Shown: positions 716 to 36,234 of the stretch, piece after piece
Layout of the letters: each line of letters opens with the position of its first letter
Position numbering within the stretch: the first letter of the stretch is position 1
Assembly (NCBI GenBank): GCA_963770895.1
Contig: CAVYRF010000002.1
Span: forward strand, 4,128,001 to 4,192,000
DNA length: 64,000 nucleotides
Direction: 5' to 3'
Source: an uncultured Acidobacteriota bacterium
GTDB taxonomy: Bacteria; Acidobacteriota; Thermoanaerobaculia; Multivoradales; UBA5704
Notes under the pieces: model-generated
Told to the model about the DNA's origin: nothing
The model's input: only the letters and a program-made list of their open reading frames with translations
Databases searched by the model: none
Made by a program: the position numbers and the translations under genes

Positions 716-1159
716 ATGCATCAGGTAACGCAATTGAACGGCACGAGCGCCGCCATCGGTTCGCCGATGCCATACTTCGTGAACCCTGAGCTGAGCGCCA
801 AGGCGCTCGAAATCAACTGGCGGTCGTTTGAGTACTACCCGCCGCTCGATCGCATCAAGCGCTACACCGAAGAGCATTACCAGGAAGAGATCCCGCTGCC
901 GTGCGCCGCCGAGGTGGCGGGCATGGAAGCCACCTACTTCTCGGCTTTCTTCCGCAAGAAAGTCGGCATTCGCTATACCGACTGGCTGTGCTGCCTGCGC
1001 ATCTCGCACGCGATCCGGCTGATCTCCAGCCGCGACCAACCGATCGCGGACGTGGCGCTGGCGGTCGGTTTCAGCGATTTGCGGACGTTCCAGCGCGCGT
1101 TCAAGCGCGTCACCAACATGACGGCGCGCGAGCTGAAGGAGCGCGTCCGTCCGGCGTAG
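716..1159 (+). CDS. AraC-family transcriptional regulator (short, essentially DNA-binding domain only)
   Basis: AAEVAGMEATYFSAFFRKKVG and IADVALAVGFSDLRTFQRAFKRVT double-HTH signature; start could be 767. Confidence 0.9.
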   Translation: MHQVTQLNGTSAAIGSPMPYFVNPELSAKALEINWRSFEYYPPLDRIKRYTEEHYQEEIPLPCAAEVAGMEATYFSAFFRKKVGIRYTDWLCCLRISHAIRLISSRDQPIADVALAVGFSDLRTFQRAFKRVTNMTARELKERVRPA

Positions 1160-1256
1160 CAGCCGGTTGAAAACCCCTGGACCGGCGGCAGCTCCGCCGC
1201 GTGAGCGGCGGGCGCTGCCGCGCCGGTGTCCCCAATCAGTGAATGGAGCGGCGGCG

Positions 1257-2780
1257 ATGTTAATTCGCAAGGTCAACCCCGACGAGTTCGTCGATGCGTA
1301 CGACGTCAAGGAACAGATGTTCTATCCCTGGAGCGACGTCGTCTCGACGCCTTTCGGCGCCGCATGGCTGGTGGTCGAACCGGGACAGCGCACCAAGCCG
1401 CACAACCACCACGAGCAGGAGACCTTCTTCATCGTCAGCGGCCGCGGCAAGATGACCTACGACGGCGAGAGCCTGGACGTGGAGCCGGGGCACGTGGCGT
1501 ACTTCCCCGCCTTCGGCGATCACATTTTGGAAAATACCTCGGCGGACGAAGATCTGCACTTCCTCACCATTTGGTGGGAAGACGAATCGGTCGTCTCGGC
1601 GCTCAAGGACGGCAGCGCCGCCGGCAAGACGTCCGGCGCCGTCAAGGACCTGGTGGCGGTGTCGCTCGCGGCAGCGCCGGCGGCGCAGTCCGCGGCGGCG
1701 GTGATGGCTCGTTACCTGCTGCTGCGCGGCGCCCGCGCACGGCTGGCCCTGACGCCCGCGCCGGCGGCCGCGGGTGCGGACGCCACCGCGGCGGCCCCGG
1801 CCTGCGACCTGCTGCGGCGTCTGGCCGCCGCCGGCGCCATCACGGTCGACGCGCAGGGCGTGACGTTCGCGCCGGCACAGTTCGCCGCGGCGGTGCGCAG
1901 CCACTACGACCAGGCGACGATGAGCCCGCGGCTGCGCGCCCTGGTGGATGCCCAGCTGTTGCGCGGCGCCGCCGTGGCGACCCTGGCCCGGCCGGCCGCC
2001 GCCGGCGCGCCGGTGCCGCTGCCGGGCTTCACCGATCACCGCCTGGAACCCTGGTTCGAGAGCGCGGCGCGGGTGCTGGCGACGCCGCGCGGCGAAGAGC
2101 GGCCGGTGGTTTTCGTGGGCGCCGAAGGTTGGAGCGAAGCCGGCCTGCTGCCGGCGCTGGCCGCCGCGGCGGGCAAGACCTGGGCGCCGGTGGCGCTGGT
2201 CGACCTGACCGAAGCCGGGGCCGCCCTGCCCGAGTGGGCCGCCACCGGCGAGCCGCCTGCCGCCTGGACCGCCTGGCTCGGCAACCTGGGCGCCAACCTG
2301 GTGCGCGACGATGCCGGCAAGGTGCCGCCGACCCAGGCATGGACGACCGAGCAGCAGCGCTTCATGGCGCGCCTGCTGCGCTACGTCGACGAAGCCGGCG
2401 CCGCCTACGATCCCGCCACCTTCTCGCCGCGCGAAGCGGCGCGGGTGCTGTCCGACCTGGTGCGCACGGCCGGCGAGTACGCCGACCGCGAGCGCCCCTG
2501 GAACGGCATCGCCAACCGGCGCGAAGAGCGCAACACCGCCGTGGCGCTCGAAGCCCTGGCGGCCAAGGTGCTGGCCTTCCTGGCCCAGCCGCTGCTGCCG
2601 GCGTGGAGCGACCGGCTGTGGCAGGCCCTGGGATACAGCCGGCCGCTCGGCGCCGGCTCCTGGGAGACGACCCCGACCTTCGTGCCCACCGGCAGCGCGG
2701 CGGCGGGCCTGGCAGAGCTGGCGGGACCGGCGCCGGTGCCGGCGGCGGCGCCTCTCGCGGTGGCGGGGGCGCCTTCCTGA
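1257..2780 (+). CDS. Cupin domain fused to a degenerate MetRS-like domain (hydrazine synthetase cupin component)
   Basis: ATG 1257 after GGAG; cupin PW..PFG..VEPG..PHNHHEQETFF..H..N..WW; C-terminal part resembles the 5681-7372 protein but lacks HIGH, KMSKS-like and Zn-knuckle motifs. Confidence 0.85.
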   Translation: MLIRKVNPDEFVDAYDVKEQMFYPWSDVVSTPFGAAWLVVEPGQRTKPHNHHEQETFFIVSGRGKMTYDGESLDVEPGHVAYFPAFGDHILENTSADEDLHFLTIWWEDESVVSALKDGSAAGKTSGAVKDLVAVSLAAAPAAQSAAAVMARYLLLRGARARLALTPAPAAAGADATAAAPACDLLRRLAAAGAITVDAQGVTFAPAQFAAAVRSHYDQATMSPRLRALVDAQLLRGAAVATLARPAAAGAPVPLPGFTDHRLEPWFESAARVLATPRGEERPVVFVGAEGWSEAGLLPALAAAAGKTWAPVALVDLTEAGAALPEWAATGEPPAAWTAWLGNLGANLVRDDAGKVPPTQAWTTEQQRFMARLLRYVDEAGAAYDPATFSPREAARVLSDLVRTAGEYADRERPWNGIANRREERNTAVALEALAAKVLAFLAQPLLPAWSDRLWQALGYSRPLGAGSWETTPTFVPTGSAAAGLAELAGPAPVPAAAPLAVAGAPS

Positions 2781-2837
2781 CGCCTGCGGCGCCGTCGCGC
2801 CCGGCGCGGCGGCAGCGGGTCGCGGAGCCCATGCGAA

Positions 2838-4199
2838 ATGCTGCTTGAGCCGAAGGACGATGCGGAGTCGGGGTGGATCGGGATGCTGCCGCCCGCGCCC
2901 GCGCTGTGCCCGCTCAGCGGCGACGAGCGCTGCGACTCCGCGATCATCGGCGCCGGGTTGACCGGCCTGGCCATCGCCCGCCGCCTGGTCGAGCTGCGGC
3001 CGGGCGAGCGGGTGGTGATCGTGGACGCCCAACGCGTCGGCTATGGCGCCTCGGGGCGCAACGCCGGGTTCGTCGTCGAGCTGACCGACTTCGCGGCGCG
3101 CATGGCGCCGGCCGACCGCCAGCGCTACGTGCGGGTGGCCCGGTTCGGCATCCGCTGCCTGCGCGAGCAGATCGCCGAGCACGGCATCGACTGCGGCTGG
3201 GACGACCAGGGGGTGCTGCGCGCGGCGGCGGGGGAGGAGGGGCACCGCGCCCTGGCCTCCTGGCCTGCATGGCTGGACACCGCCGGTTCTCCCTACACCC
3301 GCCTGGACGCGGCGGCCACCGCGGCGGTGACCGGCACCCCTTTCTATACCGGCGCCATCCGTTTTGGCGGCACCGCCAACGTGCAGCCGGCGGCGCTGGT
3401 GCGCGGCCTTGCCGCCGCGCTCCCCGGCGAGGTGACGGTGTTTGAAAACTCGCCGGTGCGGGCGATCCGACGCCAGGCCCTCGGCAACGGTGGGGATCGG
3501 AGCCATGGCGGCAACGGCAAGAGCGGCGCCGGCGGCGGCGCCGGTTTCCACCTCGAGGTGGGCGGCGGCACGCTCACCGCTCGGCGCCTGTTCGTGGCGG
3601 TCAACGGCTATACCCCCGGCCTGGGCCTGCTGCGCCAGCGGGTGTCGCCGCTGTGGAGCTTTGCCAGCCTGACCCGCGTGCTGAGCGCCGGCGAGCAGGC
3701 GGCGGTCGGCGGCGATCCGCAGTGGGGAGTGCTGGCGACCGATCCCTCGGGCTCGACCGTGCGGCGCACGGCGGACCAGCGCATCATGATGCGCAACACC
3801 TTTCACTTCACCTCCGAGCTGACGGTGCCGCCGGAAGTGCGCCAGGCGGCGGCGGTGCGCCATCGCGAGGCGGTCGCGGCGCGCTGGCCGGCGCTCCAGG
3901 ACGTGCCGTTCGAGTACACCTGGGGCGGGCTGATGGGAGTTTCCAGCAACGGCCAGGCGTACTTCGGCGAGCTGGAACAGAACCTTTTCACCGTGGCGAT
4001 CTACAACACCGCAGGGCTCGCGATGAGCGCCGCGGCGGGCCGCCTGCTGGCGGACCTGGCCCTGGGCTTGCGGTCGCCCCTGCTGCAAGACATCGGGCAG
4101 CTGCCGCTGCCCTCCTGGTTGCCGCCCGAGCCGCTGCGCTCCGCGCGCGGGCGGCGCAAAGTCGCGAAGCTGAACAGCCAGGCCGGAGCCTACCTGTAG
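2838..4199 (+). CDS. FAD-dependent oxidoreductase, DAO/PuuB-like family (candidate Spb39/Tri27-type C-N cleaving oxidase)
   Basis: IIGAGLTG, GASGRNAGF, VQPAALVRGLA, EYTWGG motifs; role inferred from context. Confidence 0.85.
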   Translation: MLLEPKDDAESGWIGMLPPAPALCPLSGDERCDSAIIGAGLTGLAIARRLVELRPGERVVIVDAQRVGYGASGRNAGFVVELTDFAARMAPADRQRYVRVARFGIRCLREQIAEHGIDCGWDDQGVLRAAAGEEGHRALASWPAWLDTAGSPYTRLDAAATAAVTGTPFYTGAIRFGGTANVQPAALVRGLAAALPGEVTVFENSPVRAIRRQALGNGGDRSHGGNGKSGAGGGAGFHLEVGGGTLTARRLFVAVNGYTPGLGLLRQRVSPLWSFASLTRVLSAGEQAAVGGDPQWGVLATDPSGSTVRRTADQRIMMRNTFHFTSELTVPPEVRQAAAVRHREAVAARWPALQDVPFEYTWGGLMGVSSNGQAYFGELEQNLFTVAIYNTAGLAMSAAAGRLLADLALGLRSPLLQDIGQLPLPSWLPPEPLRSARGRRKVAKLNSQAGAYL

Positions 4200-4261
4200 G
4201 CCGCACCGCGGCGGCTCCGCACCCCACGAACGGTAGACCTCAGAAGGAAAGGCGACGAGCG

Positions 4262-5668
4262 ATGAAGCAGCGGAATCGGATCGAGGATGCGGAAGCCCGT
4301 CACACAGGCGCGCCTCTCGACGTGATCGGCATTGGGTTCGGTCCTGCCAATCTCGCCCTGGCCGCGTGCTTGAAAGAGCAGCCGGAGATGATCGAAGGCC
4401 GGCTGGTGCAGAGCCTCTTTTTGGAGCGCAAGCCGCACTACGAGTGGCACCCCGACATGCTGATCCAGGGGGCGGAGATCCAGGTGCCTTTTCTCAAGGA
4501 CCTGGTGAGCCTGCGCAATCCGATCAGCCGTTTTTCTTTCCTCAACTACCTGCACGTGCACGGCAGGCTGCTCGATTTTGTCAACCTGCGCACGTTCTTC
4601 CCCACCCGCGTCGAATTCAACCAGTACTACACCTGGGTGGCGGGGCAGCTGTCCGACCGCGTGCGCTACGACCGCGAAGTGCTGTCGGTGCAGCCCGTGC
4701 CGGCCGAGGAGGACGGCGTGGTCGAGCTGCTGCAGGTCAAGGCGCGGCACCAGGCGACCGGCCGCGTCGAGGAATACCTGACGCGCAACCTGGTGGTGGC
4801 GACCGGCGGCTCGCCCTACATCCCGCCCGGCATCGACATCAGCACCACCGACAAGGTGTTCCATTCGCAGACCTTCCTTGCCGGGCTGCGGCAGCACTTC
4901 CCCGACCCCGACGCGCCCTACCGGTTCGTCGTCGTGGGTTCGGGCCAGAGCGCCGCGGAGATCTTCCAATACCTGTTCTCCAACTACCCCAACTCCGACG
5001 TGACGGCGACGATGCGGCGCTTCGCCTACAAGCCGGCCGACGAAAGCGAGTTCGTCAACGAGATCTATTCGCCGGCGATGACCGACGTGTTCTTCGGCCT
5101 GCCCGAAGCGGAGCGGCGCAGCCTGCACGCGGCGCACGCCGACACCAACTATTCGGCGGTCGACCTGGAGCTGATCCGTTCCATCTTCCGCGCCATGTAC
5201 CAGATGAAGGTGAACGGCCAGAGCCGCGTGCGGGTGCGCGCGATGTGCGAGCTCAAGCAGCTCGAAAAGAGCGGCGACAGCCTGGTCGCCACGGTGTGGA
5301 ACAAGGTGGCGGCGCGCATGGAAACCCTGGAAGCCGACGGCGTCGTGCTGGCGACCGGCTTCACCCGGCCGCGCCGCCATCCGCTGCTGCGCGAGCTGAA
5401 CAACCACCTGCTGACGACGCTTGACGGCGCCTACGACGTCCACCGCGACTACCGGGTGCGCAGCGTGCCGGGCTTCACGCCGGGCATCTATCTGCAAGGT
5501 TTCTGCGAGACCACCCACGGCATCAGCGATTCGGTGCTGTCCATCCTGCCGGTCCGCAGTCAGGAGATCGTGCAGTCGATCGTCGGCGGCACTTGCAGCC
5601 GGGCCGAGGACCTGGAGACGGCGGTGGCGAGCGCCGCCTATCTGCCGAGCTCGGGCGAACCGCTGTAA
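4262..5668 (+). CDS. Lysine/ornithine N-hydroxylase (SidA/IucD/PvdA family)
   Basis: IGIGFGPANLALA, WHPDML, FLKDLVSLRNP, VVGSGQSAAE, KPADESEFVNE, TNYS, LATGF, HGISDSVLS. Confidence 0.95.
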   Translation: MKQRNRIEDAEARHTGAPLDVIGIGFGPANLALAACLKEQPEMIEGRLVQSLFLERKPHYEWHPDMLIQGAEIQVPFLKDLVSLRNPISRFSFLNYLHVHGRLLDFVNLRTFFPTRVEFNQYYTWVAGQLSDRVRYDREVLSVQPVPAEEDGVVELLQVKARHQATGRVEEYLTRNLVVATGGSPYIPPGIDISTTDKVFHSQTFLAGLRQHFPDPDAPYRFVVVGSGQSAAEIFQYLFSNYPNSDVTATMRRFAYKPADESEFVNEIYSPAMTDVFFGLPEAERRSLHAAHADTNYSAVDLELIRSIFRAMYQMKVNGQSRVRVRAMCELKQLEKSGDSLVATVWNKVAARMETLEADGVVLATGFTRPRRHPLLRELNNHLLTTLDGAYDVHRDYRVRSVPGFTPGIYLQGFCETTHGISDSVLSILPVRSQEIVQSIVGGTCSRAEDLETAVASAAYLPSSGEPL

Positions 5669-5680
5669 GGCGGGGAGGAC

Positions 5681-7372
5681 GTGATGAAGAGAGTGCTGAT
5701 CACCGCCACGCCGCCGACTCCCAACGGCGAGCTGCACGTCGGACACCTTTCGGGTCCGTACCTGGCGGGCGACGTGTTCAAGCGGTTCTGCCGGCTCAAT
5801 GGGCGCGAGGTGCGCTACATCACCGGCGGCGACGACAACCAGAGCTACGTCGCCACCAAGGGCGAGCAGCTGAAAATGACGCCGCAGCAGACGGCCGACA
5901 AGTTCAACGGCGCCATCGCCGACATCCTGCGGCGGGCGCAGATCGAAGTGGACGTGTACGTGCAGCCGTTGCACTCGGCGCACCATCCGCAGTTCATCGC
6001 CGAGTTCGTAAAGCGGCTGTACGCCGCGGGCCACCTGGTGGGCAAGGACGTCGCGGCCGCCTGGTGCGGCCAGTGCGAGCGTTACCTTTTCGAGTCGTAC
6101 ATCGGCGGCATCTGCCCGCACTGCGGCGCGCACTGCGACGGCAACGTCTGCGAAGCGTGCGCCGAGCCCAACCAGTGCACCGACATGATCGACGCGACCT
6201 GCAAGAAGTGCGGCAGCCCGGCGCTGGAACGCTCCTACCGGCGGCTGTTCTTCCCGCTGGCGCCGTTCGCGTCGCGCCTCGCCGACTACTTCTCGCGGGT
6301 GAGCATGGGATCGCACCTGGCGGCCTGCTGCGACCGCATGCTCGCCAAGGGGCTGCCCGACATCCCGGTCAGCAACCTGGCGGACTGGGGCATTCCGGTG
6401 CCGGTGCCCGGCTTCGAGGGACAGCGGCTGTACGCCTGGTTCGAGATGGGGCCGGGGTATCTGAGCGCCATCAACGAAATGTTCGCCCAATCGGGGCGCG
6501 GCGACGCCTGGGCGGACTGGTGGAAGTCGGACGACGCCGAGGTGGTGCAGTTCTTCGGCTACGACAACGCCTACTTCCACACCACCCTCTTCACCTCGGA
6601 AATGATGGCGTACGACCCGGAGATCCGCCTGCCGGCGGCCTTCGTCACCAACGAGTTCTACCGGCTGGACGGGCTCAAGTTCTCGACCAGCCGCAACCAC
6701 GCCATCTGGGGCAGCGCGGCGCTCGACCACCTGCCCTCGGACGTGTTGCGCTACTTCCTCTGCCTGGACCGCCCCGAAACGGCGCAGACCAACTTCCGCT
6801 GGCAGGACTTCCGGCGCGCCGTGCACCGCGATCTGATCGAGGGCTGGCAGCCCTGGCTGCTGCAGGTGGCGCGCTCGGTGCGCGAGGAGCACCAGGGGAG
6901 CGTGCCGCAGATGGCGCCGCTGTCCGCCAACGAGCAGCGCTTCGTCGCCGAGATGGCGGGGCTGGTAGTGGCGGCGACTGCCGGCTATCAGAAGGAGAGC
7001 TTTTCGCCGCGGCGCGTGGTGGCGGCGCTCAACCAGCTGGTGGAGTCGGCGCGCATGTTCGGCGAGGCGGCCGGCTACTGGCGCAGCGGCGCCCACGAGC
7101 GGCGGCGCAATGCCGCGGCGCTGTCGGTCAGCGCCGTCGCGACGCTCGCGGCGCTGGCAGCGCCGATCATGCCGTCGCTTTCGGCGCGGCTCTGGTCCGA
7201 GCTGGGCCTGGGCCAGGCGCCCGCCGCGGGCGACTGGCCGACGCAGCCGGTGATGGTGCCGGCCGGCCGGCAGCTGCGCGGCATGGACAGCGCCTATTTC
7301 ACCGGTATCGACAGCGGGTGCGACGCGCTGGAGGCGGCGCGAGCGCCGGCGGGGGCCGCGGCCGTCGCCTGA
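5681..7372 (+). CDS. Methionyl-tRNA-synthetase-like adenylating enzyme of secondary metabolism (hydrazine synthetase activation component)
   Basis: PPTPNGELHVGH (HIGH), four CxxC pairs, WGIPVP, KFSTSR (KMSKS-like); sits beside an N-hydroxylase and a cupin, so unlikely to be housekeeping metG. Confidence 0.9.
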   Translation: MMKRVLITATPPTPNGELHVGHLSGPYLAGDVFKRFCRLNGREVRYITGGDDNQSYVATKGEQLKMTPQQTADKFNGAIADILRRAQIEVDVYVQPLHSAHHPQFIAEFVKRLYAAGHLVGKDVAAAWCGQCERYLFESYIGGICPHCGAHCDGNVCEACAEPNQCTDMIDATCKKCGSPALERSYRRLFFPLAPFASRLADYFSRVSMGSHLAACCDRMLAKGLPDIPVSNLADWGIPVPVPGFEGQRLYAWFEMGPGYLSAINEMFAQSGRGDAWADWWKSDDAEVVQFFGYDNAYFHTTLFTSEMMAYDPEIRLPAAFVTNEFYRLDGLKFSTSRNHAIWGSAALDHLPSDVLRYFLCLDRPETAQTNFRWQDFRRAVHRDLIEGWQPWLLQVARSVREEHQGSVPQMAPLSANEQRFVAEMAGLVVAATAGYQKESFSPRRVVAALNQLVESARMFGEAAGYWRSGAHERRRNAAALSVSAVATLAALAAPIMPSLSARLWSELGLGQAPAAGDWPTQPVMVPAGRQLRGMDSAYFTGIDSGCDALEAARAPAGAAAVA

Positions 7373-7435
7373 GGCGGCAGGCCGGCGACCGCGGATCGAG
7401 GAACGACCCAAACGAATGACGAAAGGGATGAAGCC

Positions 7436-8863
7436 ATGAGCGAGACCTTCGACGTAATTATCATTGGCGGCGGCCCCGCCGGCACCACGGTCGCGACCAA
7501 GCTGGTGCAGCGCGGCCGCAAGGTGCTGCTTTTGGAGCGCGAAAAGTTTCCGCGCTTCCATATCGGTGAATCGATCACCGCCTTCGGCTTCACGGTGTTC
7601 AAGGAGCTGGGGGTGTTCGACGAGCTCAACGCGATGAACGAGGTGAAGAAGAAGGGACTGGAATTCGTGTTGCACGAGAAAAAGTACAAGGTCTTCTTCT
7701 TCCAGGAGAACCGCGACGAGCCGGCGCGCTGGGCGTTCCAGATGGCGCGCGACAAGTTGGACAACGTGCTGCTGCGCAACGCCCAGAAGGTCGGCGTCGA
7801 CGTGCGCGAAGAGCACCTGGTCAAGCGCGTCCTGTTCCAGGGCGACAAGGCCATCGGCGTGGAATTCAAGGATTACTCGATGGGGCCGTCCGAGGAGCTC
7901 AAGTACGCCTACGCCAAGTGGATCGTCGACGCGTCGGGGCAGGGGGCGCTGCTCAACCACCAGCTGAAGGACAACTGGTACAACGACCCGCTGCTCGACA
8001 ACAAGATGGCCATCTTCTGCCACTGGAAGGGCGACATCACGGTCAAGAACACCGACGACGAGCTCAACTTCAAGCTGTGCGTGCACAAGAACCGCCGCGA
8101 CTGGTGCTGGTACATCCCGATCGCCAAGGACACCCTGTCGCTGGGCGTGGTGCTGAGCCCCGAGACGGTGAAGCGCGAAACGCAGACCAAGTCGCTGGAA
8201 CAGATCTTCTACGAGTACGCCAAGGACATCCCGTTCATCAGCGACATCCTCAAGAACACCACCCTGGAAGCGGTGGAGAAGTTCCGCATCGTGCGCGACT
8301 ATTCCTACCGCTCCAGCCGCTACTACGGCAACCATTGGGCGATCGTCGGCGACAGCGCCGGCTTCATCGACCCGATCTTCTCGACCGGCCTGCAGGTGGC
8401 GTTCAACAGCGCCTACGCGCTGATCGACCCGCTCAACCAGCTGCTCGACCACGAGGGCCCCGGCGAGGTCGACCTGTCGGTGCTCAAGGGCTACGACTAC
8501 GCGGTCAACCGCTACTACCGCATCAATTCGATGCTGGTCTACCTGTTCTACCTGTGCCGGCTGGACTACGCCAACTACAACTTCTGGTACATGTGGAAGC
8601 ACATCGAGTGGGCCGGCTGGAGCGACCGGCTGAAGTGCGCGCGACTCTACATCCGCTACATCATGGGGTCGGCGCAGAACAAGAGCAAGTGGTTCAACCA
8701 GGTCCTGTTCGGCAATCCGGGCGCCGAAAACCCGCTGGGCGACGTGGCGATGGCGCTGTCGGCCAACTACGATAAGGTATTCAGCAAGCGCGCCGCGCGG
8801 CCGCCGCGCGAAGAGAAGGAAAAGCGGGAGCAGTGGGTCGGAGCCCAGGCCGGCGCGGCCTAG
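7436..8863 (+). CDS. Flavin-dependent halogenase (PltA-like family)
   Basis: IIGGGPAG, PRFHIGES, candidate catalytic Lys in VKKKG, WCWYIP (WxWxIP), GDSAGFIDPIFSTG. Confidence 0.85.
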   Translation: MSETFDVIIIGGGPAGTTVATKLVQRGRKVLLLEREKFPRFHIGESITAFGFTVFKELGVFDELNAMNEVKKKGLEFVLHEKKYKVFFFQENRDEPARWAFQMARDKLDNVLLRNAQKVGVDVREEHLVKRVLFQGDKAIGVEFKDYSMGPSEELKYAYAKWIVDASGQGALLNHQLKDNWYNDPLLDNKMAIFCHWKGDITVKNTDDELNFKLCVHKNRRDWCWYIPIAKDTLSLGVVLSPETVKRETQTKSLEQIFYEYAKDIPFISDILKNTTLEAVEKFRIVRDYSYRSSRYYGNHWAIVGDSAGFIDPIFSTGLQVAFNSAYALIDPLNQLLDHEGPGEVDLSVLKGYDYAVNRYYRINSMLVYLFYLCRLDYANYNFWYMWKHIEWAGWSDRLKCARLYIRYIMGSAQNKSKWFNQVLFGNPGAENPLGDVAMALSANYDKVFSKRAARPPREEKEKREQWVGAQAGAA

Positions 8864-8950
8864 CCACGGCGCCAACCGCGCCGTACCCGGCCGCTGTCGG
8901 CCGCGACGTGTGACGCCGTATGCCACAGGCCCTTTGAGCAAGGAGACGCG

Positions 8951-11392
8951 ATGATTTCAGATATCCGGCAGGCGCTGCGCCAGATGGCCGCCCACCCCGG
9001 CTTCACTCTGGTGACCGTCTTGACCCTTGGCCTTGGCATCGGCGCCAACACGGCGATCTTCAGCATGGCGCGGGGGGTGCTGATGCGCCCCCTGCCCTAT
9101 GCCCACGGCGCCGCCCTGGTGCACATGGTGCCGCGCATCTCGGGCGCGGTCGGCGACCAGGTGTACTTCCCGGTGTTGGAGGTGCTCGACTACCGCCGCG
9201 AAAATCAGACCCTGGCGGCGGTGCTCGAATACCACTCGATGACGTTCAACCTGCTGGGCGAGGGCGAGCCCGACCGGGTGCAGACCGGCGTCGTCTCGGC
9301 CAACTTTTTCCGCGGCTTCGGCATCGCGCCGATCCTCGGCCGTGACTTTCGCCCGGACGACGACGCGCCGGGCGCCAACCCGGTGCTGCTGCTGTCCTAC
9401 GACTACTGGAAGGACCGCTTCGGCGGCGATCCCAAGGTCGTCGGCAAGCGGCTGCGCATGAACAGCCGTGAGATCGAAGTCATCGGCGTGCTGCCGCGGC
9501 TGCCCGCCTATCCCGGCAACGACCGGGTGTTCATGCCGACCTCTTCGTGCCCCTTCCGGTCGTCGGAAGGCACCAAGTCCAACCGCAACATCCGCATGGT
9601 CAGCATGTGGGCTCAGCTCAAGCCCGGCGTGACGCTCGATCAGGCGCAGGCCGACATCTCGACGCTGACGTCGCGCGAGCTGCGGTCGTTCCCCACCGCC
9701 TCGACCGCCGGCCTGCGCGTCGACCTGGTGCCGGTCAGCCAGGAGCTGACCGGGCACTTCCGGCCGACGCTCCTCATCCTGCTGGGGACGGTGGCCCTGG
9801 TGCTGCTGCTCGCCTGCGCCAACGCCGCCAACCTCACCTTTGCGCGGCTGCTCAGCCGCGAGCGTGAAGTGGTGGTGCGTGCGGCGCTGGGCGCCAGCAA
9901 GGCGCGCCTGGTGCGCCAGCTGCTGACCGAAAGCGTCCTGACGTCGCTCATGGGCGGCGTCCTGGGGTGCCTGCTGGCGGTCTTCGGGCTGGACCTGCTG
10001 GTCTCCTTCGCGCAGCGCTTCACGCCGCGCGCGGTGGAAATCCGCATCGACGGCGTGGTGCTGCTGTTCTCGCTGGGGCTGTCGCTGCTCGCCGGGTTCG
10101 CCTCGGGATGGCTGCCGGCGGTGCAGGCGCTGCGCCACAACCTGGCCGCCTCGCTCAAGGAGGGGGCGGGACGCTCGACGGCGGCAGCCGGCAAGCGGCG
10201 TTTCCGCGACCTGATGGTGGCGGCGCAGGTGGGGGTGTCGCTGGTGCTGCTGATCGGCGCCGGCCTGATGGTGCGCAGCCTGGTGCGGCTGATCGAAGTC
10301 GATCCCGGCTTCCGGCCGGAGCGGGTGCTGACCGCGACGCTGGAGCTGCCGTTCTCCAAGTACCCGCCGGGCGGGCCGCAGATCGCCAACTTCTTCACCC
10401 GGCTCTTGCAGGACATGGCGACCGATCCCAACGTCATCTCGGCGGCGGTGTCGAGCGACGTGCCGATGGGCGATTCCGACCTGATGACGCCGGACTACAA
10501 GGTCGAGGGGCAGCCGACGCCGGTCGGCCAGCCGGCGCCGCGCGCCGACGTGCACATCGCGAGCGAGGACTACTTCACGACGCTCGGCATCCCGATGGGC
10601 GAGGGGCGCTCGTTCACCTCGCAGGACAGCCTGCACGCGCCCGCGGTCATCGTCGTCAACCGCGAGATGGCCAAGCAGTGGTGGCCCAACCGCAGCCCGA
10701 TCGGCCAGCGCATCGCCATCAACTGGGCGCGCCATCCTGAGATGCGCACCATCGTCGGGGTGGTGTCCAACGTCCGCCACGAAGGGCTGACGGCCAAGGA
10801 GCACCCGACGATCTACCTGCCCTTCCAGCAGCTGCCGGGCGACGGTTCGCAGATCTTCGTGCGCACCCGCACCGACCCGTCCACCTTCCTGGCCAACCTG
10901 CGCGGGGCGGTGGCGACGATCGATCCCGAGCAGCCGGTGGCCAACATCCAGACCCTCGAACAGGTGCGCAGCAGCGCGCTGGCGCCCACCCGGCTGATCG
11001 CCATGCTGCTGTCGCTCTTCGCCGCCCTGGCGCTGATCATCACCGGCATCGGCATCGGCGCCGCCGTCTCCTTCGCGGTCGCCGAGCGCGTCTCCGAGAT
11101 GGCCATCCGCATGGCCCTCGGCGCCGACGGCGGCAGCGTCCTGTCGCTGCTCTTCAAGCGCGCCATGGGCCCGGTCTTCATCGGCTTGGCCCTGGGCCTG
11201 GCCGTCGCCATCACCCTGACCCGCGTCCTGGCCAGCAGCCTGGCCGGCATCGGCCTCTTCGGCATCGGCGCCACCGACCCCCTGGCCGTCGCCGCCGCCC
11301 TGGTTGTCCTCCTGGCCATCGGCGTCGTCACCTGCTTCCTCCCCTCCCGCCGAGCCGCCAAGGTCGACCCAGCCTCCGTCCTCCGCCAGTAA
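8951..11392 (+). CDS. ADOP-family duplicated ABC permease (MacB/FtsX-like)
   Basis: DIRQALRQM..PGFTLVTVLTLGLGIGANTAIFS start, LLLACANAANL, RAALGA..RLVRQLLTES, IRMALGA, ..RRAAKVDPASVLR end. Confidence 0.95.
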   Translation: MISDIRQALRQMAAHPGFTLVTVLTLGLGIGANTAIFSMARGVLMRPLPYAHGAALVHMVPRISGAVGDQVYFPVLEVLDYRRENQTLAAVLEYHSMTFNLLGEGEPDRVQTGVVSANFFRGFGIAPILGRDFRPDDDAPGANPVLLLSYDYWKDRFGGDPKVVGKRLRMNSREIEVIGVLPRLPAYPGNDRVFMPTSSCPFRSSEGTKSNRNIRMVSMWAQLKPGVTLDQAQADISTLTSRELRSFPTASTAGLRVDLVPVSQELTGHFRPTLLILLGTVALVLLLACANAANLTFARLLSREREVVVRAALGASKARLVRQLLTESVLTSLMGGVLGCLLAVFGLDLLVSFAQRFTPRAVEIRIDGVVLLFSLGLSLLAGFASGWLPAVQALRHNLAASLKEGAGRSTAAAGKRRFRDLMVAAQVGVSLVLLIGAGLMVRSLVRLIEVDPGFRPERVLTATLELPFSKYPPGGPQIANFFTRLLQDMATDPNVISAAVSSDVPMGDSDLMTPDYKVEGQPTPVGQPAPRADVHIASEDYFTTLGIPMGEGRSFTSQDSLHAPAVIVVNREMAKQWWPNRSPIGQRIAINWARHPEMRTIVGVVSNVRHEGLTAKEHPTIYLPFQQLPGDGSQIFVRTRTDPSTFLANLRGAVATIDPEQPVANIQTLEQVRSSALAPTRLIAMLLSLFAALALIITGIGIGAAVSFAVAERVSEMAIRMALGADGGSVLSLLFKRAMGPVFIGLALGLAVAITLTRVLASSLAGIGLFGIGATDPLAVAAALVVLLAIGVVTCFLPSRRAAKVDPASVLRQ

Positions 11393-11408
11393 CCCCCCAG
11401 GAAAGTCC

Positions 11409-11438
11409 AGGGGCCGCGGCACGTCCGCGGCCCCTTTT
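11409..11438 (+). terminator. Intrinsic terminator after the permease
   Basis: AGGGGCCGCGG-CACGT-CCGCGGCCCCT stem followed by a short T run. Confidence 0.7.
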
Positions 11439-11487
11439 CCACCCCCCCACCAGAAGCCCCGCGCCGCCGGCGCAACACCTTCCCTCA

Positions 11488-11540
11488 TCGCCCCCCGGCC
11501 CGAGCGCGGTCGCGCCGTCAGGCGCGCCGCGGTCGGGGCA
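11488..11540. repeat. ~53-bp palindromic (REP-like) repeat, copy 1
   Basis: tcgccccccggcccgagcgcggtcgcgccgtcaggcgcgccgcggtcggggca; near-identical copy at 11931-11983. Confidence 0.85.
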
Positions 11541-11930
11541 ACCAAGGAGGCGAGGGGCACCTTTCCTGCCAGCGAGTCTCCACAGCTGATGGCGCAGCCT
11601 GGCCCTGCGGCCGCCCCACCCGAGGCGGCAGCTCCGGGGCGGCTGCCGGGAGGGCTCCCCTTGTCGTCGCGCTGCGGGCTCGTGGGGCGCCAGCGACTTG
11701 GCGGTGAGCCGTATTGCCAGCGGAGCCCACATTGCCTCGCCCCAGAGCGCCGCCAAGTGGACCCTCCCGTCAGCCGCCCCTCCCCGGACTGCCAGCGACG
11801 ACTCCGGCGGCGGATGGGTCGCCTGCGAATCGAAGGCACCGCCGGCCGCAAGTGCGTGAGTACAGCGCAGCTCACGCTCCAGAGCCAGGCCGAAGCCAAG
11901 GTGCCCTCGTCGCGGCAAAACCTTCGCTCT

Positions 11931-11983
11931 TCGCCCCCCGGCCCGAGCGCGGTCGCGCCGTCAGGCGCGCTGCGGTCGGGGCA
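11931..11983. repeat. ~53-bp palindromic (REP-like) repeat, copy 2
   Basis: One mismatch versus 11488-11540. Confidence 0.85.
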
Positions 11984-12056
11984 TTCCCGCCTCGCGACCC
12001 ACAGCAGGTTCCGGGGAAAAAGGCGAACCAGATGGGCAGATGACACATTGCACGCA

Positions 12057-12182
12057 CGTCCTGTCGCTGCTCTTCAAGCGCGCCATGGGCCCCGGTCCTC
12101 ATCGGCCTGGCCCTGGGCCTGGCCGTCGCTATCGCCCTCCCGCGTCTTGGCCAGCAGCGTGGCCGGGGTGCGCCGAGCCGCC
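12057..12182 (+). pseudogene. Degenerate duplicate of the 3' end of the ADOP permease gene
   Basis: cgtcctgtcgctgctcttcaagcgcgccatgggc..ggccctgggcctggccgtcgc..cccgcgtc.tggccagcagc matches about 11137-11247 with indels; then cgccgagccgcc matches about 11348. Confidence 0.85.
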
Positions 12183-12249
12183 GGGCCGTCCACGACGGCG
12201 GTTTCCTGGCAATCGGCGCGCAGGGTGTCGCATGTTACAGTAGTGTCTT

Positions 12250-12738
12250 GTGAGCAACCGTGAACTCGATTTGCGCCGTTTGTCGGATGGCATTCCCCAG
12301 ATGCCACGCAGGCTGACTGCGCGCGAACGCCTTGCGGATCATGTGTTCTTCTACCTGCAGATGGCGTCGTGGTTTACCTTCCTGGTTGGTGGCATTGTCG
12401 GCTATGCGGTCAAGGGTCTGATCGGCTGCGTTGTCTTGCTTGGCGCCGGCACGCTGTTCGGCTTCTGGATGCGCAGAAGCCTCGGCAGGCGAGGCCGAGA
12501 TCCATTTCATGGGTTCTTCCGGCGTCTCAAGGAGCGCGCCAACGGCTCCCGCCGCGGACTGCTCGAATGGGCTATTGAAACCTTGCGTGGCAGTGGTTTT
12601 ACGCTCTCCAAGTGCCAAGCCATCACTGCCGCATACGAGCGGGCCATGGCGCAGGGTCGTTCGGCATCGCCAGCGGAGAGACAAGTTATCCTCCAGCACC
12701 TTGACGCAGAGGTTAAGCGTATCTCCTATTCGAGTTGA
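12250..12738 (+). CDS. Hypothetical membrane protein
   Basis: 162-aa ORF with two hydrophobic segments in a lower-GC region. Confidence 0.55.
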   Translation: MSNRELDLRRLSDGIPQMPRRLTARERLADHVFFYLQMASWFTFLVGGIVGYAVKGLIGCVVLLGAGTLFGFWMRRSLGRRGRDPFHGFFRRLKERANGSRRGLLEWAIETLRGSGFTLSKCQAITAAYERAMAQGRSASPAERQVILQHLDAEVKRISYSS

Positions 12739-12754
12739 CGCGCAGGTGCCGCAT

Positions 12755-13735
12755 ATGTCCTGGTCGCAGCGCCGGAAAGTGGTGTGGCGCGTGCTCGTAA
12801 CTGGCAACGCACTGCTGATCTTTGCCGCTATTGCCTCCACGGCCCTGGGGATCACAGCGGCATGGAATGCAACCAAGACTGAATTCTTGCACGCTCTGGT
12901 GAGCCTACTTTTCACTTTCGGCTGCTGGTCGTGCAGCCTGGTAGGGTGTTGGTATGGAGGTCTTGGGTTGCTCCAATGGCGCGAGTCGGGGCGGATTTTG
13001 CATGGAGTTTCGTCATCGGAGAGACGGGCGATGTCGGCTCTGTGCCGCATCTCGGACGCAAATCAGGTGGTTTATGGCTCTCAGCCAATGATGCTGATCC
13101 CTGGTGCAATTGCCCTGGGTGCTGCTTTGCTATTGAAGGAGCCGCGTTGGCTTGGCATCGTTGTCATGATGGCTGGTCTTCGATGGTGGCTTTGGGTACG
13201 CACCACGACGCCGCCGTTTGTCCTCTTCCTTTCCACCTCACACTCTCGAAGCATAGAGATGCATCGGCAGACCAAGCGCTTGGTGAGCCCGCTGCGGGTC
13301 GTGACGCTGCTGGACCTGGGCGACAGCCCGTCCCGCGTCGTGGACGAAATCCGCCTGGATTGCTTAAGAAGCGGCAATGACGCCGATTGGTGGAACGTAA
13401 TAACGATTCTAATCGAGGTGACACCACTGATCGTCATCAACGCCGACACGGAAAGTCCCGGCGTGCTGAGGGAAGCCCGGTACCTGATTTCGGAGGGCCT
13501 TACGTTCAAGGCATTCTTTCTGACCAAGGGCGACGCTTGTCTCCTCCGACGCGAGCCAGAACCAGCCGCCAGCGCATCAACCTGTCGTGTTGGTTCTGCT
13601 GCGTCACTGCAAGAGCTCATCATGGCGATTCTCAACAGCGAGAAGCTTCCGGAAAGAGGGCAGACCCTTGGGCCGCCTATCCGGCACGGAGCTTTTCCCG
13701 GATCACCCGGCAGGGACTGCGGACCCGGCGTGTGA
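12755..13735 (+). CDS. Hypothetical multi-TM protein with a C-terminal alpha/beta (possibly TIR/NDT-like) domain
   Basis: About four hydrophobic helices, then PFVLFLST..DWWNVITILIEVTPLIVIN..SPGVLRE; lower GC. Confidence 0.55.
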   Translation: MSWSQRRKVVWRVLVTGNALLIFAAIASTALGITAAWNATKTEFLHALVSLLFTFGCWSCSLVGCWYGGLGLLQWRESGRILHGVSSSERRAMSALCRISDANQVVYGSQPMMLIPGAIALGAALLLKEPRWLGIVVMMAGLRWWLWVRTTTPPFVLFLSTSHSRSIEMHRQTKRLVSPLRVVTLLDLGDSPSRVVDEIRLDCLRSGNDADWWNVITILIEVTPLIVINADTESPGVLREARYLISEGLTFKAFFLTKGDACLLRREPEPAASASTCRVGSAASLQELIMAILNSEKLPERGQTLGPPIRHGAFPGSPGRDCGPGV

Positions 13736-13827
13736 CTGCAGATCAACTCTGGCGGTTTGCTCAGGCCGGGCGGGTCTGGTCGGTGGTGCGGCCCTACGTG
13801 GAAGCGATCGTCGCCGATGGCTCTTGA
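13707..13827 (+). pseudogene. C-terminal remnant of a type IV TA antitoxin (AbiEi-like)
   Basis: RQGLRTRRVTADQLWRFAQAGRVWSVVRPYVEAI resembles AbiEi C-termini; overlaps the AbiEii-like start. Confidence 0.65.
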
Positions 13828-14176
13828 ATCTCGCAACGTGGGTGCTTCCGTCCGTTCGCGTCTCCTCGACCGGGCTCGCGCCCATGGCTCCGAGTTCGAT
13901 CGATCTTTGCTGACGGCAGCGCTCCGCCGAACGTTCGAGCGGCGCCGTACCGCCTGGCCGGCGGCAACGCCGACCGGCCTTGGTGAAGCATTCGCGGCCG
14001 ATAAGAACGTGCAGTGGCGTGCGTTCCTCGGGCGCGAGCGTCTGGGCGCAGCGCCTGATGCGTTTTGACGCGTCATCGCAGACCTGCGCGTTTTCCTGGC
14101 GCCGCTGGTCGCCGAATACAAAGATGGCGAGCAGTGGATGCCTGGGGGTCCGTGGGCTCGCGAGGAGGGTGCCTGA
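13817..14176 (+). pseudogene. Internally deleted AbiEii-like nucleotidyltransferase toxin
   Basis: N-terminal NVGASVRSRLLDRAR joins directly to C-terminal AALRRTFERRRT..P.GL..FAAD..QWRAFL; in-frame TGA at 14066-14068, then RVIADLRVFLAP..WMPGGPW. Confidence 0.75.
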
Positions 14177-14220
14177 GGCGGCGCCGGTGTTCCGGCGCCG
14201 GTTTGGTGGTGGGGGCTGGG

Positions 14221-17755: not shown

Positions 17756-19603
17756 CTACAGGGCGTCGACGCGGCGGCTGAGGGCGGTCAGGCGGGCGGC
17801 CAGGCCGGCGAGGGTGGCGGCGGTGGATTCCAGGTGCTCGCGCTCGGCGCGGATGAAGCGGGTGTAGGGGGTGATGGCTTCGTCGATGCGGTGCTGGCTG
17901 CGCTCGGTTTCGCGTTCGAACTGGGTGGTGAGGGTGGCCATGAGCTGGCTGCGCAGGGCTTCGATCTTGGCGGCGAGGTCGCGCTTGGCGGCTTCGCGGC
18001 GGCTGGGGATGATGAACAGGCCCAGGGCGGCGATGACGCCGCCGGCGAGCAGGCCGGTGGCGTCGGCGGCGGCGCCGACCAGGACGTGGGCCAGCAGGGC
18101 TCCCAGGCCGATGGCTCCGACTTCGACCAGGGCGGTGGAGGTGACGGCGGCCTGGACGTCGGCGGCCAGCCGGGTGGCTTCGTGGTCGCGATCGTAGGCG
18201 TCGACGGCGGCCTGGGCGGCGCGGCCGACGCTGGCCAGCAGGCGGTCGCGCTGCAGCTCGAAGGCGCCGCCGACCTGGCCGACGATGCGCTCGGCGTGGC
18301 GGCGGCGGCGGTCGTCGATGCGGGCCATGACGGCCTGCCACTGGCGCAGGTCGGCGGTGACCATCCAGTCGATGATCTCGTGGACGCGCTGGTCGATCAG
18401 GCGCGGCACGTCGGCGACGACCTTGGCGGCGAACTCGGCCTTGATGCGCGACTTGTTGACCAGGTCGAAGACGCGGGCCAGGCGCATGGTGTCGTCGAAG
18501 AAGCGCACGCCGCGCTGCTCGAACTCGCTCAGCACCAGGGCGACGTCGGCGAGGCGGAAGCGGAACTCCCGGCCCAGGTCTTCGCCATAGAGGGCGAGCT
18601 GGCGGTCGATGTCGTCGATCGTGGACAGGTCGTCCGCCAGCAGCGCCAGGCGTGCGGCGGCGTCGTCGCGGTAGCGCTGCGCCAAGCGGGCGGCGACGCC
18701 CAGCGGGTTTTGCAGCTTGAGGCGCAGGCGCTCGGCCTGGTCCAGGGTGCCGGTGATGAAGCGCTCCAGGTCGGCGAAGCGGCTGGTGGCCAGCAGCGCG
18801 GCGTCTGGGGTGCCGGGGGTGCCGGAGGTGCCGGAGGCGGCGGGGTTGGCGGGGTCGGCGGCGGTGGCGGGTGCGGCGGCCGCGGCCTTGGCGCGCTGCG
18901 CCTGGCGGGCCGAGACGGGGAAGATGTCGGGGGCGGCGCCCAAGAGCGCCGCGGCGTGCTGGGCGACGAAGGCGCGGACCTGCTCGACGTCGGCGTCCGA
19001 GGCCAGGATGTCGATCTTGTTGATCACCACGACGATCTTCTTGCCCCAATCGCGGATGCCTTGCAGGAAGGCGCGCTCGCTTTCGGTGAAGGGGCGGTCG
19101 GCGGAGGTGACGAAGAGCACCAGGTCGGAGCGCGGCACGAATTCGCGGGTGATCGCTTCGTGCTCGCGATGGATGGCGTTGGTGCCAGGGGTGTCGACGA
19201 TGTGGATCTCGCGCAGCAGCTCGACCGGCGCGGTGACCACCCGGACGTCGGCTTCGGCGGTCGCGGTCGGGGCCGGCCCTGGCGCCTGGCCGGCGGCGCC
19301 GGCGGTGGGGGTGTTGGCGGCGGCGTAGCGCAGCAGCTGGACCTGGGTGGTGGTCGGCGTCACGCCTTCGGCGAGCACCGGGCTGCCGAGGAGGGCGTTG
19401 ATGAAGGCGCTCTTGCCGGCGTTGAATTCTCCCGCCACGACCAGCAGGAAGAGGTCGTCGAGCTGGGCGCCCGAGCGCCGCAGCACTGCGCGGTCTTCGG
19501 GCGTCGCGCCGCAGTCTTCGAGCGCCGCCGCCAGGTCGGCGAGCAGCTGGCGCTCCTCCTCCAGGAGCACTTCCTGCTGCGGGGCGAGCAGGCGCCTCAG
19601 CAT
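17756..19603 (-). CDS. Dynamin-family GTPase
   Basis: GEFNAGKS, TPTT, DTPG, NKID; C-terminal hydrophobic paddle and coiled coil; start MLRRLL. Confidence 0.9.
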   Translation of the reverse strand: MLRRLLAPQQEVLLEEERQLLADLAAALEDCGATPEDRAVLRRSGAQLDDLFLLVVAGEFNAGKSAFINALLGSPVLAEGVTPTTTQVQLLRYAAANTPTAGAAGQAPGPAPTATAEADVRVVTAPVELLREIHIVDTPGTNAIHREHEAITREFVPRSDLVLFVTSADRPFTESERAFLQGIRDWGKKIVVVINKIDILASDADVEQVRAFVAQHAAALLGAAPDIFPVSARQAQRAKAAAAAPATAADPANPAASGTSGTPGTPDAALLATSRFADLERFITGTLDQAERLRLKLQNPLGVAARLAQRYRDDAAARLALLADDLSTIDDIDRQLALYGEDLGREFRFRLADVALVLSEFEQRGVRFFDDTMRLARVFDLVNKSRIKAEFAAKVVADVPRLIDQRVHEIIDWMVTADLRQWQAVMARIDDRRRRHAERIVGQVGGAFELQRDRLLASVGRAAQAAVDAYDRDHEATRLAADVQAAVTSTALVEVGAIGLGALLAHVLVGAAADATGLLAGGVIAALGLFIIPSRREAAKRDLAAKIEALRSQLMATLTTQFERETERSQHRIDEAITPYTRFIRAEREHLESTAATLAGLAARLTALSRRVDAL

Positions 19604-19837
19604 GCGCGGGGGCCTGGCGTGTGCCGTGGCTGGAGGGTGCCGTGCCGGTGCCGCGGGGTGTCCCTGGGAAGGGTCGCCGGGCGTACGCCGGTGGAGACGT
19701 CGCCGGCGCCGGTGGCGGGCCGCGCGCTGGGCTTTGCCATGCGCCGGAGTATGGCATGCCTTTAGCACTGGTAGGATTGCGACGCTGACGCCGCGCTTGC
19801 GCCCTCCTCCGGCGGCGTCCCCTTGAAAGGTGAACCG

Positions 19838-21115: not shown

Positions 21116-21248
21116 TCCGTCGTCGCTTGTTTGGCGGTTTCTCCAGCACCGGCCGGCTTGATGAGCCGAACGGTGCCGCGAGCGCCGGCGATGGCGTGCG
21201 TGCCAGCCGCGGCTTCGACGTCGGAGCCGGCGGTGCCTGCCCGGCGGA

Positions 21249-24439: not shown

Positions 24440-24623
24440 GCAGTCACCCTCCTGGAAGAGCCCGAGACATCAGTTGCGACAATTCTACCGTAAAGTGGGC
24501 GTCGCCGGCGACCACCCGGCGCCGGCGGTGCCGGCTCGCGCCGTGCGGCCGGGGCGGCGTGCGCGAAGGTGCGCAAGGTGCGCCTGGGCGGCGGCGTGTG
24601 TGCCGTCCGGCCGGGGCGGCCGG

Positions 24624-29460: not shown

Positions 29461-29835
29461 TGGTGGGATAACAAACGTGGCTGTTGCGCGTATCCCTGGT
29501 TCGGGGGTATAAGGCTGGTGCGGGGCGAAAGGGGGGCGTAACAGGATGGTGACATTGGGTGGGCGCCCGGCACAAAGCGGTAAACCGGTGTATAGTTCTC
29601 CGGCGAACGAGATTCAGGCTTGGCGGGTCGAGCGCGCGAACCGTACGCGGCTGACTGGTTGGGCCTGATCCGAACGAGCTGTTGCGCCGCAGCTGTCGCG
29701 TACACCGCGACAACCATCGCGATCCTTCGTTGGCTGACCGCGTCTCTGGCGAGGCTGCGGCTTGTGCGCTCCGATCGATGCGAGCCCTGTGCGCGCGCCG
29801 GCTTTCCGTCGTTCGCCGCTACCATGGAGCCTTAC

Positions 29836-31086: not shown

Positions 31087-31110
31087 GATCGCCGAGCGGA
31101 GAGCAAAGCC

Positions 31111-34281: not shown

Positions 34282-34288
34282 GGTAGCC

Positions 34289-35818: not shown

Positions 35819-36234
35819 CCGCTGGTCACGTCCGCTGGCGACGTCGCGCGTTCTGGCCCGCACGCCCGTCGCCAGCCGTTTCCCCCCAACCCTTAGCCGT
35901 CATTCTGCCGCCCGCGCCGCGCCGGCCTCCGGTTCCTGAACCCGGAGCCGGTGGGCGCGGCGCGGCTGCCACCCTCTCCGCCGCAGGCCGTCGGCCACCG
36001 GCCTGGGCTGGGCAACCCCTGCGATCCAAGCGCGGATACGTCGAACCGAAACGGGCCGATGCGCCACGGCGGGGCGAGAAGCCGTGCCGCAAGTCCGTCT
36101 AGAAAGGCGACATGGGCGCGCAACGGCACGACCCGGACACACACCAGGAGACGCGGCGGAGGGGGTTTGCTATGCTTGTCAATAGAAGCAATTTTGCAAG
36201 CGAGACCGCAGGCTCATGGCCTTGGGGAGCTGAG

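Follow-up and report, generated by a model that had tools for sequence, protein, structure and literature searches.

The window analysed here is a stretch of 64,000 nucleotides (G000:C2:4128001-4192000) from a genome of 8.16 Mb assembled in three contigs; its GC content is about 70%, and an Rfam search of the window gave no match. The sequencing runs that contain part of the stretch are all soil-metagenome DNA, with no RNA run among them. Positions 716-11392 are occupied by seven genes on the + strand, spaced by 12-97 bp. The first encodes an AraC-type HTH regulator (716..1159, +; Pfam HTH_18, E 6.5e-19, and HTH_AraC, E 4e-11) and lies 97 bp upstream of the gene of main interest (1257..2780, +), whose 507-aa product joins a cupin to a methionyl-tRNA synthetase (MetRS)-like domain that alignments and Pfam indicate to be catalytically dead. 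Directly downstream follow a gene for a DAO-family FAD oxidase (2838..4199, +; Pfam DAO, E 2.8e-45) and one for a lysine/ornithine N-monooxygenase (4262..5668, +; Pfam Lys_Orn_oxgnase, PF13434, E 1e-108), the latter starting at ATG 4262 with GAAAGG upstream. The next gene (5681..7372, +; likely start ATG 5684) encodes an intact, stand-alone MetRS-like enzyme, by type an O-aminoacyl-hydroxylamine synthetase. The two remaining genes, both syntenic with the cassette, encode a FAD-dependent halogenase-like or monooxygenase-like protein (7436..8863, +; Pfam Trp_halogenase, E 2.4e-26) and a duplicated permease of the ADOP/MacB type (8951..11392, +; NCBIfam TIGR03434 ADOP, 869.9 bits, cut-off 622.3; Pfam MacB_PCD and FtsX). 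The former reaches 158.8 bits with the NCBIfam CmlS-type model, far under the cut-off of 900, and its orthologues are 77-79% identical and keep their position; orthologues of the permease were found in the loci L016, L018 and L026.

The published hydrazine-forming cassette, as laid out in the accessible text of three reports, comprises an N-hydroxylase, a cupin, a flavin oxidoreductase and a MetRS-like enzyme (PMC8664883; PMC13149037; bioRxiv 10.1101/2025.08.22.671884). The operon is read as a hydrazine-synthetase cassette because the DAO-type oxidase and the N-hydroxylase sit between the 1257-2780 and 5681-7372 genes.

A cupin joined to a MetRS-like domain without catalytic motifs

The open reading frame at 1257-2780 (+) begins MLIRK, like its homologues. 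Its first 115 residues (1257..1601, +) form a zinc-cupin domain (Pfam Cupin_2, aa 38-106, E 1.3e-15), hence this cupin is not a free single-domain protein. In phmmer comparisons with cupin structures the domain matches 4mv2 (E 1.2e-19) and 5uqp/RHS1 (E 6.8e-7). The metal ligands H49, H51, E55 and H89 are invariant in the family alignment A4 and have the spacing of H50, H52, E56 and H90 of PyrN, in which the E56A substitution is reported to abolish activity; judged by these residues, the cupin is intact. A low-confidence linker (aa 115-129; 1599..1643, +; pLDDT <50) follows, and the cupin of PyrN is itself described as flexibly tethered in the part of that report available to us (bioRxiv 10.1101/2025.08.22.671884).

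The rest of the protein consists of a Rossmann-fold core remnant (aa 130-330; 1644..2246, +), which in the alignments has neither HIGH nor the CP/zinc-knuckle insertion, GxDN or the KFSTS loop, and a helical bundle (aa 331-480; 2247..2696, +), homologous to the anticodon-binding domain of MetRS and the best-conserved part. Anticodon_3 is the only Pfam match after the cupin (aa 356-461, E 1.7e-5, 25.2 bits for a cut-off of 23.5), and no match to tRNA-synt_1g was obtained in this protein at E <= 0.01. BLASTP aligns it with the 5681-7372 protein at 34% identity over 149 aa (E 1e-16), a segment that corresponds to the helical bundle, and at 24% over 222 aa (E 4e-9); the bundle is also recognised in the PyrN-C structure 9l8v by phmmer (E 4.3e-6). 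A sequence-only reading of this DNA had quoted three blocks shared by the two proteins, and all three lie inside the BLASTP alignments. It had also described an open frame with the C-terminal helical part best kept relative to the paralog, as is the case, and the absence of HIGH, of all four CxxC pairs and of KFSTS, which the paralog-anchored alignments bear out: gaps or unrelated residues stand in the 1257-2780 protein at PTPNGELHVGH, at the CxxC insertion of about 70 residues and at GLKFSTSRN, and the CxxC count is 0 as against 4 in the 5681-7372 protein. In the family alignments the GYDN pocket motif is replaced by EGW and the KFSTS site is deleted. All of the ligand contacts given for PyrN-C in the accessible text of its report are made by HLGH 147-150, KFSTG 458-462, G418/D420/N421, T141/N143 and E284/E286 (bioRxiv 10.1101/2025.08.22.671884); the dead domain lacks the elements that make every one of them, and therefore neither ATP nor the amino acid nor N6-hydroxylysine can be bound there in the manner described. 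That the MetRS-like domain is catalytically dead is thus supported at the level of its residues.

An AlphaFold2 model of the 507-aa protein, built from a 34-row alignment, has a mean pLDDT of 84.4 and a pTM of 0.71, with disorder limited to the linker (115-129) and the tail (493-507), and the core (aa 130-330) is modelled as alternating strands and helices at a pLDDT of about 75-94. The top Foldseek matches in the PDB are a MetRS (2x1l, E 5.7e-14) and PyrN-C (9l8v, E 3.5e-13, TM 0.59). The dead domain is confidently modelled as retaining the MetRS fold. An ESM Atlas search with this domain returned generic MetRS clusters only, at scores <=0.89, and serves as a lead only.

The 5681-7372 protein (563 aa) matches tRNA-synt_1g across aa 5-388 (Pfam, E 4.4e-89) and PyrN-C (9l8v) over aa 5-509 (phmmer, E 4.5e-87), and keeps PTPNGELHVGH, the four CxxC, GYDN and KFSTS. 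It falls under the NCBIfam MetRS cut-offs (323 bits vs 587), and a housekeeping MetRS is encoded elsewhere in the genome (G000:C2:5757561-5759120). The pairing of a pseudo-enzyme with an intact paralog, proposed from the sequence, is therefore found within a single operon.

Distribution, ancestry and selection

A word-indexed search yielded 33 relatives of the 1257-2780 protein at 34-67% identity, those with names deriving from Thermoanaerobaculia/Acidobacteriota MAGs, and a second search, exhaustive and profile-free, in which the dead domain served as the sole query, yielded 226 proteins at E <= 1e-3. When 122 gathered proteins of 430-900 aa were assigned to classes by alignment columns, in proportions that are biased by the query, 45 were cupin-plus-dead-domain proteins, 49 intact didomain proteins, 21 intact stand-alone enzymes and 7 other. 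The cupin-plus-dead-domain proteins range from 447 to 645 aa, and 10 of the 45 still carry the CxxC knuckles.

A match to the query is present in seven of the nine other in-genus genomes. The genome G005 is uninformative on the co-occurrence of the two genes, because its contig begins inside the oxidase gene; an orthologue of the partner is present there. The search for the same pair in other genomes, suggested by the sequence-only reading, found a separate intact MetRS-like gene in all nine genomes with a dead domain (G000, G004, G006, G007, G008, G001, G003, G041 and G042). The dead-domain gene is followed in the same order by the genes for oxidase, hydroxylase, intact MetRS-like enzyme, flavoprotein and permease in G008, G004, G007 and G006, with the provisos that in G004 synteny runs through the MetRS-like gene, where the contig ends, that the G007 contig starts within the dead-domain gene, and that the synteny in G006 spans two contigs; the six-gene arrangement is seen again in the metagenome loci L078 and L103. 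The oxidase gene is the immediate downstream neighbour of the dead-domain gene in all in-genus loci long enough to show it. The arrangement is looser elsewhere. G001 and G003 have a dead-domain gene with its knuckles kept, together with the oxidase gene, and an intact MetRS-like gene, 65-66% identical to that of the window, at another site; in G001, G003 and G041 the partner gene lies on another contig or behind NRPS genes, which part the two groups in G041, and NRPS modules flank both sites in G003. G042 carries a distant dead-domain gene (37% identity) directly followed by an intact MetRS-like gene of its own (HIGH, KFSTT, four CxxC), and no oxidase was found in this 12.5-kb locus. Around the deep-branching P0046-type locus L090, neither hydroxylase, oxidase nor MetRS-like gene was found within 13 kb, the neighbours being a penicillin amidase and a TonB receptor, and the match of the metagenome copy L118 is spread over three different frames.

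In a tree built from 75 MetRS-like domains with the housekeeping MetRS added (LG+C20 PMSF, quick search), a single clade holds 29 of the 30 dead rows (SH-aLRT 97), with identity down to about 35%. The thirtieth, P0126, adjoins an intact didomain protein (SH-aLRT 97) and by its placement represents a second, independent decay. Presence of the zinc-knuckle (CP) insertion switches at least six times inside the dead clade, a pattern indicating that the insertion was repeatedly lost after catalysis had already gone. Across 14 sequences reaching down to 35% identity, 30 columns of the dead domain are invariant.

Substitution rates were estimated by NG86 from six in-genus orthologues, and at about 90% GC3 the ratios are rough. 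For the dead domain (codons 125-480) dN/dS is 0.25-0.72, below 1 in all 15 pairs, which answers the question of selection on the pseudo-domain that the sequence-only reading had posed; the two closest pairs give 0.25 and 0.30. The values are 0.10-0.27 for the cupin (15 pairs) and 0.17-0.51 for the full-length active partner (21 pairs), and the helical bundle of the dead domain (0.18-0.61, 15 pairs) can be set against the bundle region of the active partner (0.30-0.76, 21 pairs). The middle of the dead domain, the core remnant of aa 130-330, evolves fast (0.27-0.80 in 15 pairs). At a dS of about 0.6-0.9, each of the six in-genus genes still has an open frame reaching into the common C-terminal region. 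These ratios support purifying selection on the dead domain, and the open frames and invariant columns agree with them. Recent decay, which intact motifs in the relatives would have betrayed, does not fit: a deep clade has the dead state in common, 45 of the 122 gathered proteins show the layout, dN/dS is below 1, and a separate intact gene is present in all nine genomes. The fast middle region and the repeated loss of the CP insertion are also compatible with slow decay.

A part of the sequence-only reading that lacks support in its original form is the origin of the pair by duplication and subfunctionalisation. The partner clade (five rows, SH-aLRT 100) groups with other stand-alone enzymes and is not the sister of the dead clade. 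The latter falls in with P0059, an intact didomain protein, and with another stand-alone paralog, the second one in G005; the values supporting this placement are only 81-87. A constraint that unites the dead and partner clades worsens the fit by 84.3 lnL units (AU p = 0.035), a result that is marginal because the AU test used fast searches and the simple LG+F+G4 model. With the partner clade placed elsewhere and the AU test marginal, duplication in situ is not supported. Our tentative reading is that catalysis was lost in a didomain ancestor to which another sub-lineage's stand-alone enzyme was available; a tandem duplicate splitting the work appears less likely.

A proposed division of labour and its alternatives

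By analogy with the described cassettes, the N-monooxygenase (4262-5668) would make N-hydroxylysine, and the 5681-7372 enzyme would activate an amino acid with ATP and esterify it to the N-hydroxylysine, the substrates of both enzymes being presumed ones. The cupin of the 1257-2780 protein would then rearrange the unstable O-aminoacyl-hydroxylamine to a hydrazine, from which a free hydrazino acid is probably released through cleavage by the DAO-type oxidase (2838-4199). It is highly probable, given the motifs kept and lost in each protein, that the labour is divided in this way, the cupin acting in the 1257-2780 protein and adenylation and esterification being carried out by the 5681-7372 partner. 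What the dead domain contributes is a more delicate question. We propose, as the likeliest reason for its retention, that it may be an assembly module standing in for one of the subunits in an ancestral dimer of MetRS-like proteins, and therefore would keep the tethered cupin beside the active partner. PyrN-C is reported, in the available part of its description, to crystallise as a dimer (bioRxiv 10.1101/2025.08.22.671884), and the ester intermediate to have a half-life under 10 minutes, failing rearrangement being diverted to a shunt product; a dimer, a flexible cupin tether and a short-lived ester make the dimer-mimic scaffold the most economical idea. This reading as a whole, an N-N bond synthetase whose two chemical steps are divided between two MetRS-family proteins with the dead one as the assembly module, seems to us evenly poised, and the same can be said of its physical core, a putative heterodimer in which the dead domain docks to the active partner. 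A complex prediction with residues 1-548 of the 5681-7372 protein and dead-domain residues 128-492 scored 0.00 against a mark of 0.32, in a run without controls and with one dead-type row (P0064) in the partner alignment, and so counts neither for nor against docking. In any case docking would not be required for the chemistry and would bring at most a gain in efficiency, since separated cupin and MetRS-like pieces, as well as E56A and K458A variants, are reported to function in trans in vitro, and natural systems with free cupins of about 120-130 aa have been described (PMC8664883, as far as its text was accessible). The distant partner genes of G001, G003 and G041 and the lack of cassette neighbours at L090 also weigh against the assembly module. 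A stronger version, entertained tentatively, makes the dead domain an obligate 'prozyme' that replaces one subunit of the ancestral homodimer, giving an asymmetric heterodimer in which a single active adenylation site would be paired with a single tethered cupin; such a heterodimer would hand over, and possibly activate or gate, the unstable O-aminoacyl-hydroxylamine.

The same facts that make docking dispensable also speak for a self-contained module, in which the dead domain stabilises or homodimerises the cupin without touching the active enzyme and the ester simply diffuses. That trans complementation and free cupins work, that linkage to the partner gene is missing in G001, G003 and G041, and that full-length E56A was, in published work, expressed better than the truncated MetRS-like domain, from which it follows that neighbouring domains can aid expression, are all in keeping with it, and purifying selection fits it equally well as docking. 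It has to contend, however, with free cupins of the family that are stable alone, with solved structures of 125-128 aa (4mv2, 5uqp), with the dimerisation of PyrN-C, and with an intermediate so short-lived that proximity should be an advantage, and we consider it a real but distinctly less probable explanation. A functionless relic, decaying slowly toward a free cupin and held open only by the upstream cupin and too little time, would account for the six or more losses of the CP insertion within the clade, the length variation of 447-645 aa, the middle-region dN/dS of up to 0.80 and the three frames of the L118 copy. On that account nothing would be lost if a stop or frameshift arose behind the cupin, yet none of the six in-genus genes has acquired one at the divergence given above; moreover the clade extends to about 35% identity with its invariant columns, dN/dS in the bundle is no higher than in the bundle region of the active partner, and the predicted model is confident, so that a relic is judged quite improbable.

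A new binding role, such as docking of the DAO-type oxidase, of an NRPS carrier or condensation domain, or of the product via the bundle, is suggested by the oxidase gene, which adjoins the dead-domain gene even where hydroxylase and MetRS-like gene are elsewhere (L019/L033, L021/L028, L113), by the NRPS modules that flank the genes in G003 and G041, and by the bundle being the most conserved part. The G042 locus, in which the MetRS-like gene comes next after the dead-domain gene and the oxidase was not found, points the other way, as do the conserved residues of the bundle, most of which the active members of the family have conserved too; we regard this role as improbable, if somewhat less so than a relic. 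Pseudoenzymes occasionally turn out to be active, and adenylation or another reaction by non-canonical residues would make the domain still an enzyme; here the HIGH segment, which binds the nucleotide, and the KMSKS-type loop have been lost by outright deletion and not by substitution, the GxDN amino-acid pocket motif is gone and an intact paralog is always present, which leaves this explanation scarcely credible. The assembly module thus remains the reading that we favour.

A third layout among hydrazine synthetases

Among the known families of enzymes that form N-N bonds, hydrazine synthetases are the largest, and they are being mined as biocatalysts. The literature searched gave only fused and fully split hydrazine synthetases, in agreement with the earlier impression that the layout had not been described; no description of a dead-domain cupin fusion was found in it, supplements and the Matsuda et al. 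2024 phylogeny of 401 hydrazine synthetases being outside its scope. The cupin-plus-dead-domain protein with its separate active partner is a third layout, conserved and lineage-wide. It offers a natural experiment on whether physical association matters for an intermediate with a half-life of minutes. The relatives bear database names such as 'methionyl-tRNA synthetase' and 'mannose-6-phosphate isomerase-like cupin', and under such names, or in mining blind to motifs, the dead-domain fusions would be mistaken for plain cupins or for didomain enzymes that are active. The dead clade also documents a stepwise reduction of the aminoacyl-tRNA-synthetase fold, with motifs missing clade-wide and the CP insertion then repeatedly lost. 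Should the obligate-prozyme heterodimer prove true, natural-product biosynthesis would have its first pseudo-aminoacyl-tRNA-synthetase scaffold.

With the didomain enzymes Spb40, Tri28 and PyrN the 1257-2780 protein shares an N-terminal zinc-cupin with four ligand positions, a linker, a MetRS fold ending in a helical bundle, and the genomic company of an N-hydroxylase and a FAD oxidase; unlike them, it has a MetRS-like domain without HIGH, the zinc-knuckle CP insertion, GxDN and KFSTS, and its 507 aa compare with a median of 673 aa in the gathered intact didomain proteins. With the two-protein systems (RHS1 of Rhodococcus jostii, FuzE/FuzG and AsnHS) the operon shares the division of catalysis, in which one protein bears the cupin and the intact MetRS-like protein is a separate one. 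With the Fuz cassette, as far as that is described in the accessible text, it also shares the number of four genes, an N-monooxygenase and a flavin oxidoreductase among them; the cupins of those systems are free proteins of about 125 aa (5uqp), whereas the cupin here is joined to a MetRS-like domain of about 380 aa that is dead but conserved. The retention of a dead paralog beside an active paralog of the same fold recalls the AdoMetDC prozyme of Trypanosoma brucei, and for prozymes heterodimerisation and activation have been demonstrated, according to the portion of the source available (PMC5201418). Unlike the AdoMetDC prozyme, the dead paralog described here bears a second catalytic domain of its own, the cupin, and would enter into a heterodimer that is for the present putative.

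Decay of the MetRS-like domain on a second branch

The loss of catalytic motifs from the MetRS-like domain has happened more than once. The database protein P0126, like P0192 and P0193 from its cluster, is a cupin protein of 645 aa, near full length, in which the alignment shows the four CxxC kept, a degenerate HIGH motif and no KFSTS. P0126 adjoins the intact cupin and MetRS-like didomain protein P0090 in the tree (SH-aLRT 97), and the MetRS-like domain of this group represents a separate, second decay event.

Relatives and further copies of the dead-domain gene

The nearest stand-alone relative of the dead clade in the tree is an intact MetRS-like paralog, the second in the same-genus genome G005 (locus L025, 3233-4852, contig G005:C76), which shares 47% identity with the intact MetRS-like protein of the window and lies beside a MacB-type permease gene on the opposite strand. 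Two metagenome contigs carry further copies of the cupin-fused dead domain. The gene at 3328-5118 of L090 is a deep-branching form of the P0046 type that has retained its zinc knuckles; a penicillin amidase gene and one for a TonB-dependent receptor lie next to it, and no hydroxylase, oxidase or MetRS-like gene was found within 13 kb of it. The copy at 1025-2382 of L118, adjoined by divergent oxidase and hydroxylase genes, was recovered as tblastn pieces spread over three frames and is possibly a truly broken dead-domain gene.

Other features of the window

A LodA-type L-lysine epsilon-oxidase gene is found at 22427-24469 on the minus strand (Pfam LodA_N, E 5.5e-78; LodA_C, E 6.6e-38), about 15 kb from the cassette, and both loci encode lysine-modifying enzymes. 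The similarity of the 7436-8863 flavoprotein to LodB/GoxB maturases is weak, with a score far under the cut-off. GC content drops in 11400-14200 (0.615 across 12001-14000), a stretch without any Rfam match and whose ORFs of 271-434 aa have no match in Pfam. A tRNA-Pro(GGG) of 98 nt, called by ARAGORN at 24578-24675 on the plus strand, is probably false. It finds no support in Rfam at gathering score, and an acetyl-CoA-synthetase-like ORF of the minus strand runs into it with its 3' end. The window also encodes a dynamin-family GTPase (1234 aa; 17756-21460, minus strand), an RND efflux set of HlyD, AcrB and OEP (29596-35818) and a CHAT-domain protein (1086 aa; 36103-39363, plus strand).

NRPS surroundings of the hydrazine genes

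No NRPS gene lies within 12 kb of the window's own cassette. The hydrazine genes of genomes G041 and G003 sit among PCP-C-A NRPS modules (L029, 9431-16675; L020, 1-6729; L019, 11534-16003), and at locus L066 of G041 a thioesterase stops shortly ahead of the MetRS-like gene.
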